A stretch of DNA of 18,382 bases from the NCBI GenBank assembly GCA_918234285.1, contig CAKJXZ020000006.1, forward strand, positions 1 to 18,382, given 5' to 3'. Under the pieces are notes generated by a model, which saw only the letters and a list, made by a program, of their open reading frames with translations, was not told the DNA's origin and searched no databases. Shown here piece after piece: positions 8,230 through 16,068 of the stretch (within the stretch, counting starts at the first letter, position 1; each line of letters starts with the position of its first letter). The position numbers and the translations under genes are program-made. This DNA comes from Pseudomonadota bacterium (GTDB taxonomy: Bacteria; Pseudomonadota; Alphaproteobacteria; RF32; CAG-239).

Positions 8230-8766
8230 TTATGCTTTATCCTCGGCAAGTTGGCAATAGTGACGGAAATAAAAATATTCCGAAACGCTGATGAGCCCGT
8301 AAATAACGACATAAGTGCCGGCGGTTAACACCAGCGCCCATTCGCCGAATTGCTGCGAAGTCAAAATAAAATAAGCCAACACCACGCCGATAATACCGCT
8401 GGCCATTGACCATCCCCACGGCATGGCGATTTTACGTGCTTCAAAGCTGCCGGAAATCTGCATAACTCCCGATGCCAGAATCCACAACGCGAAAAATATC
8501 GGCAAAGTTTCGGCGCTCAAGCTGAGATTGGTCATAAAAATCAGTCCCATAAATACATCAAAAAGGCCGACAACCATATACCAGCCGGAATATTCGGACA
8601 GCGAAAAAGTGATGTAGCCGCAACCGAGCATAAACAACATCAAGCCCAGATAAAAAGCCATACCTAAAAGCGAAACGGTCGGATGTGCCCAAATCAATAT
8701 ACCGAGAACCACCATAATCAGGCCGGAAATTAAATGCCATATACTGCATCTTTTATCTTGTTTCAT
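8230..8766 (-). CDS. HdeD/DUF308-like multi-pass membrane protein
   Basis: About six hydrophobic helices in repeated units (W..ISGLIMVVLGILIWAHP; W..VVGLFDVFMGLIF; WSMASGIIGVVLAYFI). Start set at ATG 8766 because AAGGAGGA lies at 8778-8771. Confidence 0.85.
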   Translation of the reverse strand: MKQDKRCSIWHLISGLIMVVLGILIWAHPTVSLLGMAFYLGLMLFMLGCGYITFSLSEYSGWYMVVGLFDVFMGLIFMTNLSLSAETLPIFFALWILASGVMQISGSFEARKIAMPWGWSMASGIIGVVLAYFILTSQQFGEWALVLTAGTYVVIYGLISVSEYFYFRHYCQLAEDKA

Positions 8767-8859
8767 AAAATCCTCCTTTGCTAACGGCATAAAAATATTA
8801 TTTGCGCGGATTTTTTCAAGACGACCGATCAATATAAAAAAAATCGTTCTTAATAAAAA

Positions 8860-8892
8860 TGTCATACAAATTTAAGAAAAATGTGATATACT
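8860..8892 (+). promoter_or_regulatory. Putative promoter of array gene A: degenerate direct-repeat box plus extended -10
   Basis: TGTCAT-ACAAA-TTTAAG (8860-8876; 14/17 identical to the gene C box TGTAAC-ACAAA-TTTAAC), 10 nt spacer, then TATACT preceded by TG-n. Confidence 0.45.
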
Positions 8893-8913
8893 GAGACAAA
8901 GGGAATGAAAAAT

Positions 8914-10363
8914 ATGGCATAGTTTACTGTTCCGGATTTCGGAGATATCAATGAATTCAAGGCATGGGTTGCTAAGTTGGACGAGCGAGCCATTCAGTCT
9001 TGGACGGCCGAAAACTGGGTGGAAATGTATCATAAAATCGAGGGATTTCGCGGCTATTTTGGCAACGGCAGCGAAATGGTCAAACATTGTCCGGAGGAGT
9101 TTATCAAGTTATACAGCAACTATCGTATGGAGCCGGAGCAGTTAAAATATATTACCCAGCTGGCTCATCAGGCCGGCGAACAGTTAGCACAAGAAGAACT
9201 TGATGCTTCCAAATTGGCAATCAGAACCAGAAAGTATTATCCCGTATCGGTTCCGGAATTTAACAGTACCGCAGATTTTAAGGCCTGGGTGGGCAGTTTG
9301 GACGAGCGCGCCATTCAACAATGGAATATGGACGATTGGATTGCCGTATATAAGCAAGTCGAGCCTATTCGTCGTCGGCCGGATATGGAGCAGATAAAAA
9401 AATCGACGATAAGATTTTGGCGCAGTTCAGAGAAGAATTGAAAGCCGCACAAGCATTGGACCCGGTTGACGCCGATATATATAGAGATGCTGTTTCGACT
9501 ATTAGTGTAAAGATGAGTTTGAAAAGTTGTATAAAAACAGCACCATCAATCCGCAAAAGATGTATTATATAAGACAATATATGCATCAGTTTGAAGATAT
9601 GGGTGACGGGCTGTTGCGAAGATATGAAACCGGCAGAACTTCATTTATAACGGAGATGACACAAAAAATCGATGATATTACAGCAACCGGTACAAAATAT
9701 GCTCCGGAGCATCGGGTACACTCAACGGTTTATGTCGGAGAAATGCGAGGCGGATGGCACGGTCGGGCTGCGGCATTAACAGATGGTCGTGCCGCATTGG
9801 AGATGAACAGTCGCTCGCTGGTTGATGGCGCCATCGGTACGGCGGCCAGTGTGGCCATAGATGCCGGACTTGCCGGTCGCGATATTTATAAAGAGGTTAA
9901 AAAAGCCGATGACGTTACCAAACAGCAAGTTAAAAAAGATAAGGAAAACGCCAAAAAATACGGCGAGAAAAAACAAAAACAGGTAGCCAGAGCCTCGGCA
10001 AAAGCCAAATCCAAAACGCCGCAAAAACAGGTAACCGCCGCCAAAATGAAAACCAATGCCGTCAACGCCAATAAATATCAAAAACAGATGGAAGACATTA
10101 TTAATAGGCTGAATAAGGCCAACGGCAAGGTCAAGACCATGGATGCGGCCAAAACCGCCGCCACACTGTATCAGAAATACGGCGATAATGCTTATGCGTT
10201 GTTGCAAGAGGCCGTACAAAGTCCGGGCTCGTATCAAAAGCTGGGTGACGGTAAGCTGAAAACTTCACGCGACGTGATTCAACACCTGTGTCAAATGCCG
10301 AATACCAAACAGAATCAGCAAGTTGTACAGAGTATCATTCAGAACCGTGCCAAAAGTAAGTAG
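8914..10363 (+). pseudogene. Array gene A: disrupted gene of about 483 aa with two N-terminal repeats, a Gly/Ala-rich segment and the shared C-terminal domain
   Basis: ATG 8914, in-frame TAG at 8920-8922, then continuous frame into ORF 8977-9441. The internal repeat continues in a different frame at 9506 (CKDEFEKLYKN... versus HCPEEFIKLYSN...). A third frame is open from 9354 across the gap. Length 1450 nt + 2 nt = 484 codons, consistent with two single-base losses. Confidence 0.75.
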
Positions 10364-12076
10364 TTAGCGCGAACGGCGGTTTCTGGTGGTAGCCATGGCA
10401 ACGACATTGCTCTTTTGCTGTTCGTCATCAATTTCGCAAAGTCTTTGAATAATCTGCCGCGAACTGGACAGCAATTTGCCGTTATTATCGCGCAAATCTA
10501 ATTTTTTAGCCATTGTGGTCGGCGCCATCATAACTTTTGCCAATACTTTGGAAGCATTTTCGCCATATTGTGCGCTCAGAGTTTCAATAGTTGCCTCAAC
10601 ATCGAGTTGGCGTGATTTGCCGTTAGCTTTGTTCAGGTTGTTCAGCATAGAGCGCATTCTGGCCTTGTCTTTATCCGACACGTTACCGCTGTTATCGGTT
10701 TGGCGCGGTTTATCCTTAGCCGGAACTGGCGCAGTTTGCTGCGGTGTTTTGGCTTTATTTTCCGACTGCGGCTGCGTCCGTGTTTGCGGATGTTCTTGCG
10801 CCACTCGAGAGTGCGGTTGTTCCGGCGCTGCACGGGATTGTGAGTGTTCACGTCCGGCTTCGGCTTCTCTCACTTTTTGCTCAATATATTGTCCGAGCTC
10901 GGAGTAGAAGCTTCCGGTATAGTGAATACCGTCGCCGCCCTTACTGCCGAATACTTTAGAGTTAGACTGGCTGCGAACATATGATTGGGTATCAACTACC
11001 TTAACGTCATCGGACAGGTATTGCTGCATATAGCGGTTAAAATCATCCACTCCTTTATTGACCTTGGCCGCATCCGAGCGATTGGTACTGACCGGGTTGA
11101 CCGTGGTAAAATAGACCTGTTTGCCTTGTTTTTTCATTTCTGCAGCGAATTCGTTCATCTGTGCGGCATATTCCTTGGCCATTTTTTCAATATTTTTATT
11201 GCTGTGAACCGCACCGTATACGTCATTAAAACCGAGATTTACCACTACACAATCGCAATCTTTGGCATCTTGTTTGATGTCGTTCAGGTGTTGTTTGAAC
11301 CAAGCAAAACCCTTGCCGCTTTGTGCAAACCAACGATCGCCGGACTTATCGGTTTTTCTTTTCAGCTTCATGTCGTTTTCTCCGGCCATGCCGACCGTGC
11401 GGCTGTCACCGACGTTGAGAATCTTGCCGGAACTTTCGCTTGCCCGAGATTGAGAATCTTGATTCTGGGATTTTGCACCGGCATTGGCCTTTCTGGCTTT
11501 ATCTTCTTCTTTTTTCGATTTTTTGGAAGCATTGGCCTTATCCGTTGCCATCACTTTTTTGGTGGTGTTGAATTCAAACTCGCCCGTTGCCATGCAAGCG
11601 GCATTGTCACGGGCGCGTCTGCCCACATCTCTGGCATATTTCGAGCGGAGTATTTCCTTGGCGGCGGTTGTATAATCCTCATTTTCCATTGCCGTCAGCA
11701 TTTTATTGAATTTCTTGGTTCTCGGAATACCCATATTATAGCACATATCAATCAAGACAAATTGCCGTTCGTCATCGAGCTTTTCAAGCAGCGGGCCTAA
11801 TCTCTTATCGGCCTTTACTCCCTCAATGACTTTATTTAAATCGTGCTGCAGTAACTTTTGCGCTTCGGCTTCGGTAATTCCGTTATCAAGACTGCTTTTA
11901 TTGAGAATTTTGCATACTTCTTTTTTGGCACGGGCGATTGCTGCCGGAGAACTACCGTAGCGCTCCAGATTATAGCCGTAACCGATGCTTAAATATCCGG
12001 CCGGGCAACGGCGTTGTGTGCTTAAAAAGCCCTCGCTGCGTTTAATGCGATTTAAATATTCCTGATTATCCAACAT
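10364..12076 (-). CDS. Array gene B: T4-type (GH24) lysozyme + SGNH/GDSL hydrolase + shared C-terminal domain, 570 aa
   Basis: E15-X8-C24-X5-S30-IGYG and LIDMCYNMG...FNKMLTAM...SKYARDVGRRA resemble T4 lysozyme; SGNH blocks GDS225, SGKG, GFN284D, D382GIH385; AAGGAG RBS; no signal peptide. Confidence 0.88.
   Translation of the reverse strand: MLDNQEYLNRIKRSEGFLSTQRRCPAGYLSIGYGYNLERYGSSPAAIARAKKEVCKILNKSSLDNGITEAEAQKLLQHDLNKVIEGVKADKRLGPLLEKLDDERQFVLIDMCYNMGIPRTKKFNKMLTAMENEDYTTAAKEILRSKYARDVGRRARDNAACMATGEFEFNTTKKVMATDKANASKKSKKEEDKARKANAGAKSQNQDSQSRASESSGKILNVGDSRTVGMAGENDMKLKRKTDKSGDRWFAQSGKGFAWFKQHLNDIKQDAKDCDCVVVNLGFNDVYGAVHSNKNIEKMAKEYAAQMNEFAAEMKKQGKQVYFTTVNPVSTNRSDAAKVNKGVDDFNRYMQQYLSDDVKVVDTQSYVRSQSNSKVFGSKGGDGIHYTGSFYSELGQYIEQKVREAEAGREHSQSRAAPEQPHSRVAQEHPQTRTQPQSENKAKTPQQTAPVPAKDKPRQTDNSGNVSDKDKARMRSMLNNLNKANGKSRQLDVEATIETLSAQYGENASKVLAKVMMAPTTMAKKLDLRDNNGKLLSSSRQIIQRLCEIDDEQQKSNVVAMATTRNRRSR
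10769..10849 (-). repeat. Three degenerate 27-nt (9-aa) tandem repeats in the gene B linker
   Basis: EHSQSRAAP / EQPHSRVAQ / EHPQTRTQP, each unit beginning GAA-CA. Confidence 0.55.
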
Positions 12077-12113
12077 CGGTTTTCTCCTTAATAAAAGTTA
12101 CCTTATATATATT

Positions 12114-12169
12114 ATATTACAATGATTTATAACAAAAAACAATTACGAATTTGTTAAATTTATGTTACA
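12114..12169 (-). promoter_or_regulatory. Conserved array promoter module upstream of gene B
   Basis: Minus strand: TG-TAACA-taaatt-TAACA-N9-TTGTTT-N17-TAATAT. Confidence 0.75.
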
Positions 12170-12170
12170 G

Positions 12171-12198
12171 AAATACCGCGGAAATTTCCGCGGTATTT
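12171..12198. terminator. Perfect 28-bp palindrome, probable terminator of gene C
   Basis: AAATACCGCGGAAA-TTTCCGCGGTATTT, 25 bp downstream of the gene C stop. Confidence 0.75.
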
Positions 12199-12223
12199 GA
12201 GATGTTGTATATTAACGTTCGGA

Positions 12224-13288
12224 CTAGTTCATACCTCCGCGACCGCGGCGACGTGCGGCCACCATAGCCAAGGCATTGTCGCGTTCCTGTTCGTTTTCCG
12301 GTTGGCTGAGTCTTTGAATAATTTGACGTGAACTGGCGAGTAATTTGCCGTCTTTGTCACGCAAATTCATCTTCTTAGCCACCGAAGTCGGAGACATCAT
12401 GGCTTTTGTTAAGATTTTGGATGCTTCACTGCCGTATTGTGCAGTCAAGTCATCAATTGTTTTATCTATGTCAATCTTCTTGTTTTTGCCGTTAGCCTTA
12501 TTCATATTGTTCAACATTGAGCGCATTCTGGCCACATCTTTATCGGTGGCATTTCCGGTTTTGGCCGGCGCGGTAGTTTGTTTTGGAGCCGGAGCGGCAG
12601 CACGCGGAGCGGCGGTCTGTTTTTGGACCTTGTCATCTTTGGCTTTGGTTTGTGCCACCTGGCGCGTTTCGGCTTCCTTTTTAGCTCCGTATTCTCTGGC
12701 TTTTTCGGTATCGTCTTTAACCTGCGCTTTGGTAACATCTTGCCCTTTGACTCTGGTCGGGCGCTTATATAAAGATTCATTGAATTTAGGATCATCATCC
12801 GACCATTCACCGGTACGCATTAATTCCGCATTCTTACGAGCTCTTTGTCCGGTCTGTTTGGCATACTTGGAATTCAGCATTTCTTTCGAGGCTGTTTCAT
12901 AATCACCTTCTCTTAAAGCACCAAGCATCTTTTTGAATTGTGCCAAATTATCGGCACCCATGGTGTAACACATATCCACCATAACATATTGGCTGGCCGG
13001 ATCGAGTTCTTTCCACCACGGAAACCGTTCATCCAATGCATCATAAGTGGTTTTTAAATCTGCGCGGCAGATTTTATCAGCGTCGGCGGTGGTCAATTTA
13101 TCGCCTTTATTAATGTCCTTTCCGGTCATTGATTTAACCCACTGCGGACCACGGCCGCTGGTATCTAAGTTATGTCCGTAGCCTACACAATAACCTCTAC
13201 CCGAAGGGTCACGCTTTTTGGTGGCGGTAAAACCCTCACCTTGGGCAACACGTCTTACCCATTCATCTTCCGTAGCCTTATCCACCAT
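12224..13288 (-). CDS. Array gene C: T4-type (GH24) lysozyme + shared C-terminal domain, 354 aa
   Basis: E18-X8-D27 then YCVGYGHNL; LDPASQYVMVDMCYTMG...FKKMLGAL...SKYAKQTGQRARKNAELMRTG resembles the T4 lysozyme C-lobe. Start set at ATG 13288 from AAGGAG at 13301-13296; no signal peptide. Confidence 0.9.
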   Translation of the reverse strand: MVDKATEDEWVRRVAQGEGFTATKKRDPSGRGYCVGYGHNLDTSGRGPQWVKSMTGKDINKGDKLTTADADKICRADLKTTYDALDERFPWWKELDPASQYVMVDMCYTMGADNLAQFKKMLGALREGDYETASKEMLNSKYAKQTGQRARKNAELMRTGEWSDDDPKFNESLYKRPTRVKGQDVTKAQVKDDTEKAREYGAKKEAETRQVAQTKAKDDKVQKQTAAPRAAAPAPKQTTAPAKTGNATDKDVARMRSMLNNMNKANGKNKKIDIDKTIDDLTAQYGSEASKILTKAMMSPTSVAKKMNLRDKDGKLLASSRQIIQRLSQPENEQERDNALAMVAARRRGRGGMN

Positions 13289-13324
13289 CGTTTTTCTCCT
13301 TAAAAACAATAATCCATTTTCTTA

Positions 13325-13380
13325 ATGGTACCATAATCCGCACGCAAAAACAATATCTAAATTGTTAAATTTGTGTTACA
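13325..13380 (-). promoter_or_regulatory. Conserved array promoter module upstream of gene C
   Basis: Minus strand: TG-TAACA-caaatt-TAACA-N9-TTGTTT-N17-TACCAT with an extended -10 TG. Confidence 0.78.
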
Positions 13381-13409
13381 AAAAAAGCCGCGGAATATTA
13401 CCACGGCTT
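13380..13409 (-). terminator. Intrinsic terminator of gene D
   Basis: Minus strand AAGCCGTGG-TAATATT-CCGCGGCTT followed by a T-tract, 24 bp after the gene D stop. Confidence 0.75.
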
Positions 13410-13433
13410 GAAGATATACGACTTTTGCGGTTA

Positions 13434-14957
13434 TTACATACCGCCGCGACTGCGCTTTTTGGACGAGGCAATAGCCAGAATTTGCTTATTTTGCTCCTCG
13501 TTGTCGATTATGCACAGCTGTTCCAGAACCCCACGCGAAGACCTGATTAATCTGCCGTTTTCATCGCGTAAATTCAAACGTTGCGAAAATTGCGACGGAG
13601 ACATCATTATCTTGGTTAAAACTTTAGAGGCATCAGTACCGTAGAGTTCGGTCAAGCGGTCGATGGTTGCTTCGATATCAACCGGATTTTTTCTGCTGAC
13701 TTTGTTCAAATTAGTCAGCATTGACTTCATTCTGGCCCTATCTCTGGCCGAAATTTCGTCATTGCGAACAACCTTTTTCCCGGTTGATACTGCTGTCTGT
13801 TGCTCGGCTTGAACGGCAGAAGATTCGCGCTGCTCGTTGGTAGCCGTCGTAACATGGAATATTGAAAGGCGTCTTTCCTGGCGAGAAGATTCTTCTCCGG
13901 CATTTTCGGCATCAGTTCGCATCACCGCCGGAGTTGCGCTCGGAACGTTGGCGTTTTTAATATAAGAATCGGCATAATTGTCAATCATTTTTCTCAATGA
14001 GGTACTTCCCGTACGCAGACCGAATAAGTGATTTTCCGCCTTTTGCAGATTGTCAATTTCCGTTGTCGCCTTGGCTCTTTGTTGTGCGACTTTGTTTTCA
14101 AGTTCGCTGATTTGCTGAGGTGTCAAATCTTTGGTGGCGGCAGACAATTCGTCGATTTCATGATTCAGTTGATCCCCCATCCATGTATACATGCGGCCGA
14201 CGGTAAAACGACCTTCCGTCTTGACTTTTTTATTTTTTACTGTTCTTGTAACCATCGGCGGATACTGAGTATTGGCATCGATAACTTGGAGTTTTGTTCG
14301 GTTATTGGCCTGGATTACGTAGTTTTTCAGTTTGCCGTTCTCATCATAGTTTACGGCCACGATTACTTCGGCATGTTTACCGGAGTTTGAGCTGTTGCTG
14401 TCGCGGGATATTTGGTCTCCCGGACCCACTTTTCCCTGTTCTATCAGATTCCATAAGGTTTTTTTGCCTTTTCCGGATATTTTGAGATCGTTAGGGAAAG
14501 GGGCCAAATTAGCGGCACTAAGGTTATCCGCATCGCATTTTACCAGACTTTCAACACCCATTCTTTCGCAAATGGCAGCTTCCACCGCACAAGCGGAGAC
14601 GGCGCAGCAATATGATCCACTGTAACGAGAAGCGTTGCCGACGATATCACCTTGGGCAATCTTTCGATAGGCAAGACTGTCGCTCACCATTCCCTTCTTT
14701 TTGTTGAAAATATCTCTGTTCATATTTCCGTTGCATCGCACGGCCGCATCAAAAGCGGTAGTTCCCTCAGAAAGGCAGATGCTTTCATATTGCTGTTGGC
14801 GTAATTGCCGATATTGTGACAATAAGGCATTACGATATTCTTCGGTGGAGGCGAAATCCTCACGTTTCAACGGAGGAAAATTCTCATCCAGTTCTTGTTT
14901 CCTTCTGGTAGCGACGTCATCGGTCAGATCTTTCGCGTCGTTTGCTTTATTTCCCAT
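13434..14957 (-). CDS. Array gene D: probable CHAP/NlpC-P60-like Cys-His hydrolase + shared C-terminal domain, 507 aa
   Basis: YC117C118AVSACAV helix, VGPGDQI, SGKH195AEVIVAV strand and YVIQ216ANN occur in the order typical of CHAP domains; GGAG RBS; no signal peptide. The gene itself is secure; the domain call is moderate. Confidence 0.7.
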   Translation of the reverse strand: MGNKANDAKDLTDDVATRRKQELDENFPPLKREDFASTEEYRNALLSQYRQLRQQQYESICLSEGTTAFDAAVRCNGNMNRDIFNKKKGMVSDSLAYRKIAQGDIVGNASRYSGSYCCAVSACAVEAAICERMGVESLVKCDADNLSAANLAPFPNDLKISGKGKKTLWNLIEQGKVGPGDQISRDSNSSNSGKHAEVIVAVNYDENGKLKNYVIQANNRTKLQVIDANTQYPPMVTRTVKNKKVKTEGRFTVGRMYTWMGDQLNHEIDELSAATKDLTPQQISELENKVAQQRAKATTEIDNLQKAENHLFGLRTGSTSLRKMIDNYADSYIKNANVPSATPAVMRTDAENAGEESSRQERRLSIFHVTTATNEQRESSAVQAEQQTAVSTGKKVVRNDEISARDRARMKSMLTNLNKVSRKNPVDIEATIDRLTELYGTDASKVLTKIMMSPSQFSQRLNLRDENGRLIRSSRGVLEQLCIIDNEEQNKQILAIASSKKRSRGGM

Positions 14958-15178: not shown

Positions 15179-15214
15179 TTTGTGTAATTAATTTAATAAC
15201 TTAAGGAAAATGTG

Positions 15215-16068
<854 letters not shown>

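Follow-up and report, generated by a model that had tools for sequence, protein, structure and literature searches.

We analyzed an 18,382-bp window, an entire contig (C6) from an alphaproteobacterial genome of the order RF32 (G000; 2.0 Mb in 71 contigs, rated 100% complete). Between the genes for a DUF308 membrane protein and ribosomal protein S12 (rpsL), this window contains three intact minus-strand genes, which we call B, C, and D, and one degraded plus-strand gene, A. All four end in the same domain of ~105 aa, to which different N-terminal parts, or heads, are attached. Here we describe this domain and its carriers and weigh the possibility that it directs proteins into a type IV secretion system (T4SS). 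The features of the locus are as follows.

8230..8865, minus strand: DUF308 membrane protein (Pfam), left border of the locus that is variable in the genus
8914..9441, plus strand: N-terminal remnant of gene A, with ATG at 8914, a stop at codon 3, and two tandem units
9506..10363, plus strand: C-terminal open frame of gene A, 278 aa from TTG 9527, with a K/A/Q linker and the shared domain at 10028-10360
10364..12076, minus strand: gene B, 570 aa, leaderless; GH24 lysozyme, SGNH/GDSL esterase, and shared domain; tail ..TTRNRRSR
11633-12043, minus strand: GH24 lysozyme of gene B, aa 12-148 (Pfam)
10880-11425, minus strand: SGNH/GDSL esterase of gene B, aa 218-399 (Pfam)
12224..13309, minus strand: gene C, 354-361 aa, leaderless; GH24 lysozyme at 12824-13240; tail ..RRRGRGGMN
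13434..14957, minus strand: gene D, 507 aa, leaderless; orphan N-terminal region, coiled helices, and shared domain at 13437-13787; tail ..KKRSRGGM
~14148-14780, minus strand: putative papain-like hydrolase region of gene D, with invariant C117/C118 and H195
15212..15586, plus strand: rpsL, ribosomal protein S12 (Pfam), right border of the variable locus

Profile matches place the shared domain at 10028-10360 in A (plus strand) and at 10367-10714, 12230-12577, and 13437-13787 in B, C, and D (minus strand). When the last 118 residues of C were used to search the whole genome, B, D, and A were recovered with E values of 1.2e-38, 3.2e-28, and 5.1e-11, respectively, and the four-way alignment of the domains contains 16 invariant columns. 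By these measures of sequence similarity, the homology is far beyond chance. An earlier, sequence-only reading of the window had described a four-gene array with one shared C-terminal domain. The profile matches and the genome search locate the domain where that reading had put it; the array itself consists of three intact genes and a broken remnant, and the genome contains five carriers. The fifth copy (E 9.7e-6) is internal, at residues 369-480 of an 896-aa orphan protein (C14:70907-73597). Two local profiles, built from 5 and 55 sequences, find just these five carriers among the ~4,800 open reading frames (ORFs) of the genome.

An alignment of 55 rows gave the consensus M..I..MNK.NG..K..D...T...L..KYGD.A..LL.KA...P..(gap)..TSR.AV..LC, in which N27, G50, A53, P64, S84, and L91 are nearly invariant. 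From this alignment, AlphaFold2 produced a model (pLDDT 85.6, pTM 0.73) with five helices, at residues 13-30, 38-62, 64-71, 84-92, and 97-111, and no sheet. We compared the domain with sequence and structure databases. The four window copies gave only sub-threshold noise against Pfam at E<=10, with no match to the PG_binding_1, LysM, SPOR, or SH3b families, in keeping with the sequence-only reading, which had not recognized it as a known wall-binding module. No NCBIfam or PHROG family matches the domain. A PDB sequence search with the domain profile returned noise only (E>=0.16), the best Foldseek hit of the model against the PDB had an E value of 0.52, and the ESM Atlas gave no usable match. 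An exhaustive VIA-align comparison with 48,161 chains peaked at Z 4.4 on designed helical proteins, generic helical matches that we did not use; no T4SS protein was among the 50 best rows. Our literature searches found no description of this domain, although paper supplements may list XVIPCD-like families. We conclude that the ~105-aa domain is a well-supported, undescribed domain family with a five-helix model and no known fold match.

The homology between A and C begins ~50 residues upstream of the helical domain (window 9890-10030 and 12590-12760), where it opens with a lysine-rich motif (K..V K.D.E.A..YG.KK) ahead of the low-complexity linker. Therefore the shared module, as delimited by sequence, may be ~165 aa rather than 105.

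The heads differ from gene to gene. B and C share a lysozyme (33% over 238 aa) as well as the domain (44%), while D and A share with B and C only the C-terminal 145-175 residues. B runs from the lysozyme through a linker, the SGNH esterase, and a Q/P/A linker to the shared domain and tail; C has a GH24 lysozyme, a K/A/P linker, the domain, and a tail, and its database copy (P0001) is 354 aa long. The Phage_lysozyme family (PF00959; cut-off 22.3 bits) matches B with 47.4 bits and C with 46.8 bits. B also matches Lipase_GDSL (PF00657; 38.6 bits, cut-off 23.6) and DUF459 (30.0 bits, cut-off 27.2). Both lysozyme heads additionally match phrog_7 (endolysin) and phrog_2083 (internal virion lysozyme), and they weakly match a Bartonella gene transfer agent (GTA) endolysin model (E 2e-6 to 8e-6, far under its cut-off). 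The SGNH domain of B could plausibly strip O-acetyl groups that block muramidases. As the sequence-only reading had noted, the linkers are of low complexity and rich in K/A/Q/P/S, and no N-terminal signal peptide was seen when the N termini of B, C, and D were read by eye.

That reading had also assigned tandem repeats to A, lysozyme plus SGNH to B, lysozyme to C, and a CHAP-like domain to D. Pfam and the tandem units of A bear out the first three assignments, and the fourth is unconfirmed: D has no match in Pfam, NCBIfam, or PHROG, and a PDB sequence search returned only noise. The neighbors of D in a language-model comparison include CHAP/NlpC_P60 clusters at 0.93-0.94, mixed with unrelated clusters. 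Modeling of its N-terminal 389 residues by AlphaFold2 from a 4-row alignment gave a pLDDT of 49.8, with the putative catalytic part below 50. The Cys pair C117/C118 and H195 are invariant in all four orthologs, and we consider the D head a probable Cys/His hydrolase.

Gene A is a degraded remnant, not an intact gene. It begins with ATG (8914) and GCA followed by a TAG stop (8920-8922); a stop-to-stop ORF then covers 8923-9441, the frame closes at 9441, and the frame break lies between 9441 and 9506. We used the intact 812-aa ortholog of the congener G201 as a reference for tblastn, which revealed two tandem N-terminal units of ~100 aa at 8923-9228 and 9250-9489. Of the ortholog, the window retains residues 6-108, this unit being present in a second tandem copy; it also retains residues ~62-190, in the other frame, as well as residues 637-812, which align to 9833-10360 with 88.6% identity. 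The ~450 central residues (ortholog ~190-637) have no counterpart in the window. Position 8920 is a T, as in the window, in run X2, which belongs to the same study as the probable source, and a G, giving a sense codon (Glu), in contigs of runs X3-X5, three runs of another study. The X3-X5 contigs have no indel within 8800-10040 and thus have the frame break in common. It follows that the nonsense codon is strain-specific and that the split and the deletion are older. One further contig matches the window only at 9848-9898, and the 30 letters that precede this match resemble a glycine-rich segment ahead of the conserved tail of the G201 protein. A and B converge with their stop codons abutting (10363/10364; window 10361-10366), leaving zero intergenic bases and no space for a terminator.

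The flanks of the locus consist of core genes (Pfam): uvrB, lepB, rnc, era, and genes for a HAD hydrolase and the DUF308 protein on the left, and rpsL, rpsG, and fusA on the right. The same housekeeping genes adjoin the locus in four congeners. The DUF308 neighbor recurs in G201, G218, G232, and G202, and the synteny with rpsL holds in G201 by DNA similarity and also in G218, G232, and G202. Arrays of three to five domain copies occur only in G000, G201, G218, and G232, all in genus g1 and all at this DUF308-rpsL locus. The corresponding interval of G202 (C32; L058:5202-9650) has no four-gene array and contains one 1482-aa domain carrier and a 202-aa orphan. B and C are separated by 147 nt and C and D by 124 nt. 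In one public run, the C-D spacer has a 1-nt deletion at 13380.

To compare rates of divergence, we aligned the G000 and G201 proteins and took the last 110 residues as the domain. The flanking proteins are 99% (Era), 100% (HAD), and 86.7% (DUF308) identical, and B is 87.5% identical throughout. C is 84.3% identical in the domain and 49.1% in the rest, and D is 80.7% identical in the domain and 51.8% in the rest. The G201 C head is nearer to the G000 B head (55.4%) than to the G000 C head (46.5%). DNA similarity between the two genomes is lost exactly over the C and D heads, and contigs of other strains leave the window inside the N-terminal part of D, with loose ends at 13891, 13952, and 14161. 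Together, the divergence of heads relative to domains and the strain breakpoints in the D head indicate, at the level of sequence comparison, that heads have been exchanged or diversified on a conserved C-terminal module. Such fast head divergence is as expected of variable cargo on a conserved delivery module.

The sequence-only reading had suggested a search for further carriers. Searching 1.84 billion cluster representatives with the five-copy profile yielded 59 clusters at E<=1e-3, 40 of them at 1e-10 and 10 at 1e-30; a word-indexed search of 5.8 billion proteins returned, besides the copy in the window, just three close relatives. A locus search with a 4-row alignment gave one related locus, "MAG: Alphaproteobacteria bacterium isolate Tb.RUG.243". 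Within the order, the domain is present in 44 of 283 genomes (35 of 219 of high quality), all of one family, with 15 of 49 genomes in genus g1, 22 of 36 in g3, 4 of 29 in g12, 1 of 56 in g9, and 1 of 11 in g20. Of 401 genomes sampled evenly across the class, 2 match, both in the same family. Searches of 50,697 phage and 72,556 plasmid records did not find the domain.

Most carrier genomes have a single copy, typically in an orphan of 650-780 aa with a conserved N-terminal "..IDFQVDT.." module, in which the domain lies near residue 550 and is followed by ~90-110 residues. We scanned 49 of the 59 representatives with Pfam, leaving out the 896-aa protein of the window genome and nine short or fragmentary sequences. 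Phage_lysozyme was found in 6 of these 49 relatives (two also with GDSL), one had a sub-threshold ankyrin match, one a sub-threshold DAO_C match, and 41 had nothing. Hence most N-terminal parts match nothing in Pfam, and the description of the heads as cell-wall-lytic applies at this locus and not in the family. The domain is C-terminal in the window copies, as had been proposed, and ends at most 7 residues from the C terminus in 30 of 55 aligned rows; in the other 25 aligned relatives it is internal, followed by 13-445 residues. N-terminal parts of the relatives also have paralogs without the domain in the window genome. By sequence, then, the architecture is modular. Paralogs of the "..IDFQVDT.." module, which is conserved in the ~700-aa carriers of other genera, lack the domain in the window genome; they are at C17:1357-2427, C24:990-2603, C3:144493-146706, and C32:16666-18429.

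We also noted a ~40-member paralogous family in the window genome, with proteins of 200-380 aa that start with "MA(E/K)LNDKFEF.QDGKTY", contain internal repeats, and are often encoded at contig ends (examples at C14:82411-84525, C46:93-2060, C69:188-2761, C36:6991-10819, and C39:951-3569). Its members are related to the repeats of P0060, itself a weak match to the domain; two of them, on C46, end in ..KKFKPGGRE(D/E). From these sequences, the family may represent another large group of proteins that are secreted.

The absence of signal peptides extends to the relatives. A hydrophobic 12-mer within the first 45 residues was found in 1 of 58 representatives (at residues 33-45), and a transmembrane-like 19-mer in 1 of 58. 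By these predictions, the carriers are leaderless and soluble. Their C termini tend to be basic. A-D have 4-7 basic residues after the last helix (..RRRGRGGMN, ..RNRRSR, ..KKRSRGGM, ..NRAKSK), and domain and tail are contiguous in all four. Averaged over 54 family members, the net charge of the last ten residues is +2.24, versus +0.46 for 1484 ORF-called proteins of the genome; as the sequences are related and the background is a crude ORF call, these counts describe a tendency and not a formal test. A charge of at least +2 was found in 41 of the 54 (27.5% of the background), and 49 of the 54 are net positive. Proteins with an internal domain have a mean of +1.62 (n = 24). Many carriers end in ..GGR, ..GRS, ..RSR, or ..GGM, and ends of the G-[GNS]-[RM] type occur in 14 of 54 family members versus 33 of 1484 background proteins.

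We then asked which machine could export leaderless proteins from this bacterium. A vir locus on contig C17 (L010:739-18455, L059:459-9885) encodes two VirB2, VirB4, two VirB8, VirB9, VirB10, and VirB11, and VirD4 (737 aa) is encoded on another contig, at C24:33033-35246. Judged from its genes (VirB2, B4, B8, B9, B10, B11, and VirD4), the VirB/VirD4 T4SS looks complete; Pfam did not identify VirB3, B5, B6, or B7 among the unassigned ORFs of the vir locus. VirB9 bears a C-terminal SPOR (peptidoglycan-binding) domain. VirB10 is 1400 aa long, with beta-flower repeats ahead of its TrbI domain, and comes after a 1411-aa protein composed of Bflower_2/Bflower/DUF3659 repeats. Of the 283 genomes of the order, 279 have VirD4, with identities of 73-93% among 24 aligned relatives. 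The genome contains no relaxase of the two families searched for, which fits a protein-secreting rather than a conjugative system. Gene content thus points to a core, relaxase-free machine of the lineage. We found no type VI secretion system (T6SS) sheath (TssC) and no FHIPEP gate in this genome, which is rated 100% complete, and no HlyD-type adaptor of a type I secretion system scored over the cut-off. Among the machines that we searched for, the T4SS is the sole apparatus found for exporting leaderless proteins. Flagellar or injectisome export was dropped, as no FHIPEP gate was found. We also dropped a C-terminal sorting domain of the type IX secretion system (T9SS) kind: those domains are beta-sandwiches on proteins with signal peptides, and here the domain model is all-helical and the proteins are leaderless.

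Several other genes lie near the T4SS genes. The vir locus also encodes a 1789-aa orphan, and a type IVb pilus cluster (TcpQ, secretin, a PilO-like protein, T2SSE ATPase, and T2SSF platform) adjoins the vir genes on the opposite strand (C17, L009:9322-19966). Directly upstream of virD4, on the same strand, are four uncharacterized genes for proteins of 340, 720, 158, and 500 aa (C24:35265-40534; L012:5265-10534, minus strand), the last with a weak NERD match. The products of these four genes are candidates for coupling-complex or adaptor subunits.

Basic C-terminal tails are an established type of signal on VirB/VirD4 substrates. We tentatively favor, with a probability of roughly 45%, the explanation that the domain and the basic tail together form a new T4SS effector recognition module on leaderless substrates. 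B, C, and D, and formerly A, would be made in the cytoplasm and would be substrates of the chromosomal VirB/VirD4 T4SS, with the domain and short basic tail recognized by the secretion machine or one of its adaptors, much as the BID domain plus basic tail is on Bartonella Beps or XVIPCD on Xanthomonas X-Tfe effectors. The heads would be the cargo: a muramidase and an SGNH esterase in B, a muramidase in C, and a probable Cys/His hydrolase in D, which would act on the peptidoglycan of a neighboring bacterium after contact-dependent transfer. The DUF308-rpsL locus would serve as a hot spot in which heads are swapped and the module is kept. We infer export at all, export by the T4SS, recognition of the domain and not of the tail alone, and a bacterial target, along with every step that leads from leaderless proteins with basic tails in a T4SS-encoding genome to recognition by VirD4 through the domain. 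The earlier proposal that the domain is an export or recognition tag thus gains from the T4SS that looks complete, from the lack of another exporter among those searched for, and from the fast-changing heads; none of our observations links the domain itself to VirD4 or to another T4SS part.

That gap is one of several points that weigh against a T4SS recognition module. Nearly all genomes of the order have the T4SS and only 44 of 283 have the domain, so the machine is independent of the domain; moreover, with VirD4 in 279 genomes, the virB/virD4 co-occurrence that had been suggested as a check proved uninformative about a link between the two. Two complex predictions of VirD4 120-737 (25-row alignment) with the domain (55-row alignment), run without controls, both scored 0.00 and count neither way. 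The carriers are scattered among housekeeping genes, with no recurring partner and no adjoining T4SS gene in 11 contexts (ten other genomes and the C14 locus). As just 6 of 49 scanned relatives have a lysozyme, the family as a whole cannot be assigned an antibacterial role, and for D the hydrolase assignment is unproven. In 25 of 55 relatives the domain is internal, and A-like relatives without the domain carry the same kind of basic tail. Finally, there is no immunity-type gene between or beside B, C, and D, and no ORF of at least 60 aa in the B-C and C-D spacers, unlike in X-Tfe/X-Tfi pairs. According to a recent preprint, X-Tfes are usually encoded in bicistronic effector/immunity pairs, X-Tfis guard mainly against cis-intoxication, and kin protection in Xanthomonas rests on a separate periplasmic factor (bioRxiv 10.64898/2026.05.09.723464). 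Thus, the missing immunity neighbors weaken the analogy without excluding it.

As a rival explanation, the proteins could be T4SS substrates whose signal is the extreme basic tail alone. The domain would then act after or beside export, as a module that targets or binds the envelope, a membrane, or a conserved protein of the recipient, or, in the producer, as the site where a chaperone or adaptor docks. Localization domains common to otherwise unrelated effectors are well known from Legionella and MARTX toxins. Proteins with an internal domain keep their basic tails, and two A-like proteins without the domain, from G218 (772 aa) and G232 (764 aa), end in ..SGGRE and ..SKGRE like many carriers, so the tail rather than the domain is possibly the export signal; the enrichment of G-[GNS]-[RM]-type ends points the same way. 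The position of the domain within 7 residues of the C terminus in 30 of 55 relatives, its contiguity with the tail in all four window copies, and the lack of similarity to a known lipid-, peptidoglycan-, or protein-binding fold in our searches argue otherwise, and we consider this explanation unlikely.

Two further explanations do without a secretion signal. B and C could be the bacterium's own autolysins, or endolysins derived from a phage or GTA and released by a holin or by lysis without any secretion system, with the domain as a new wall- or envelope-binding module. Their heads do match phage lysozyme families (PF00959, phrog_7, and phrog_2083), with the weak GTA endolysin match in addition, and a cationic C terminus is seen on some endolysins of Gram-negative phages. 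However, the 18-kb contig contains no phage, holin, or GTA gene, its other genes all being housekeeping; the domain is without a match in the phage and plasmid records; 43 of 49 relatives have no lysozyme; none of the PG_binding, LysM, SPOR, or SH3 families matches; and rapid head divergence is unusual for housekeeping autolysins. This origin therefore seems improbable to us. Still less credible is a regulatory domain with no role in export, one that keeps cytoplasmic hydrolases inactive through autoinhibition, oligomerization, or docking of an immunity protein encoded in trans. Although the lack of adjacent immunity genes calls for some other means of self-protection, and the domain is a compact helical bundle on long flexible linkers, most relatives have no recognizable enzyme (43 of 49 lack both lysozyme and SGNH), and a cytoplasmic muramidase has no substrate there to be protected from. 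Regulation also leaves both the missing leaders and the basic tails unexplained.

If the T4SS recognition module that we favor is real, it is a second, structurally unrelated solution to the same task, found in uncultured, small-genome Alphaproteobacteria, and with the domain profile one could list the effectors across an order whose genomes nearly all retain a T4SS with no assigned purpose. A bolder version, which we regard as doubtful, is that the chromosomal VirB/VirD4 machine kept throughout the family (genomes of 1.1-2.0 Mb), relaxase-free and equipped with a giant beta-flower VirB10, serves for predation or as a weapon that depends on contact. Its own bipartite signal, the five-helix domain and basic tail, would have evolved independently of XVIPCD and BID, and swappable warheads that degrade peptidoglycan would be stocked, without immunity genes, at the hot spot next to rpsL. 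Bacteria-killing T4SSs would then include a second class, unrelated to the first and found in another class of bacteria. Whatever the mechanism, the domain is a new family of 59 clusters that merits a database entry, and the locus displays domain-level exchange of cargo on a conserved module between close relatives. Our literature searches found nothing that joins RF32 with type IV secretion, and the reports that they returned on interbacterial T4SS lysozyme effectors in Alphaproteobacteria include none on this lineage by title and abstract.

In architecture, the proteins resemble the X-Tfe effectors with XVIPCD (PF20410). Both are leaderless peptidoglycan hydrolases or lipases with a linker and a shared C-terminal domain of ~100-120 aa, and in both cases the genome has a chromosomal VirB/VirD4 system and several paralogs with different heads. 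As described in PMC8740702, XVIPCD consists of two helices on a three-stranded sheet followed by a long glutamine-rich tail, and bacteria-killing T4SSs with XVIPCD have so far been described for Xanthomonadales, Burkholderiales, and Neisseriales (PMC8740702). The window domain, in contrast, has a model of five helices without a sheet and a short, basic tail in place of a glutamine-rich one of ~20 or more residues; therefore, it is not XVIPCD. Consistent with this, PF20410 had no match in the whole genome at E<=1, and the sequence-only reading likewise had not recognized the domain as XVIPCD. There is also no adjacent immunity gene, the domain is internal in many relatives, and the host belongs to a small-genome alphaproteobacterial family.

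Modular endolysins share with these proteins a GH24 muramidase, a linker, and a second domain, as well as a cationic C terminus. They differ in that the window offers no phage context, the domain is absent from the phage records, and it is mostly found on non-lytic orphans. Polymorphic toxins (T6SS MIX/FIX, type VII secretion system LXG, and contact-dependent inhibition) likewise keep a module while enzymatic parts are swapped in a chromosomal hot spot, and here too cargo diverges much faster than module and flanks. Unlike in those toxins, the variable part here precedes the module, which is C-terminal; the array has no accompanying immunity genes, and no T6SS was found.

The BID domain is a ~100-aa, all-helical domain that can be internal or terminal, is attached to diverse N-terminal parts, and forms a bipartite VirB/VirD4 signal with a positively charged tail. 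Compared with the Bartonella Beps and relaxases that carry it, our proteins differ in that the domain has no sequence or fold match to any solved structure in our searches (Pfam, PDB, Foldseek, and VIA-align), that the genome has no relaxase of the two families, and that the cargo includes peptidoglycan hydrolases, which makes a bacterial target likelier than a eukaryotic one. In common with the BID proteins, they occur in a genome with an alphaproteobacterial VirB/VirD4 system and have an all-helical domain of ~100 aa that may be internal or terminal, diverse N-terminal parts, and, after the domain, a short basic tail. We thus view the find as a new domain family on an already known architectural theme, for which our interpretation is plausible and partly supported.

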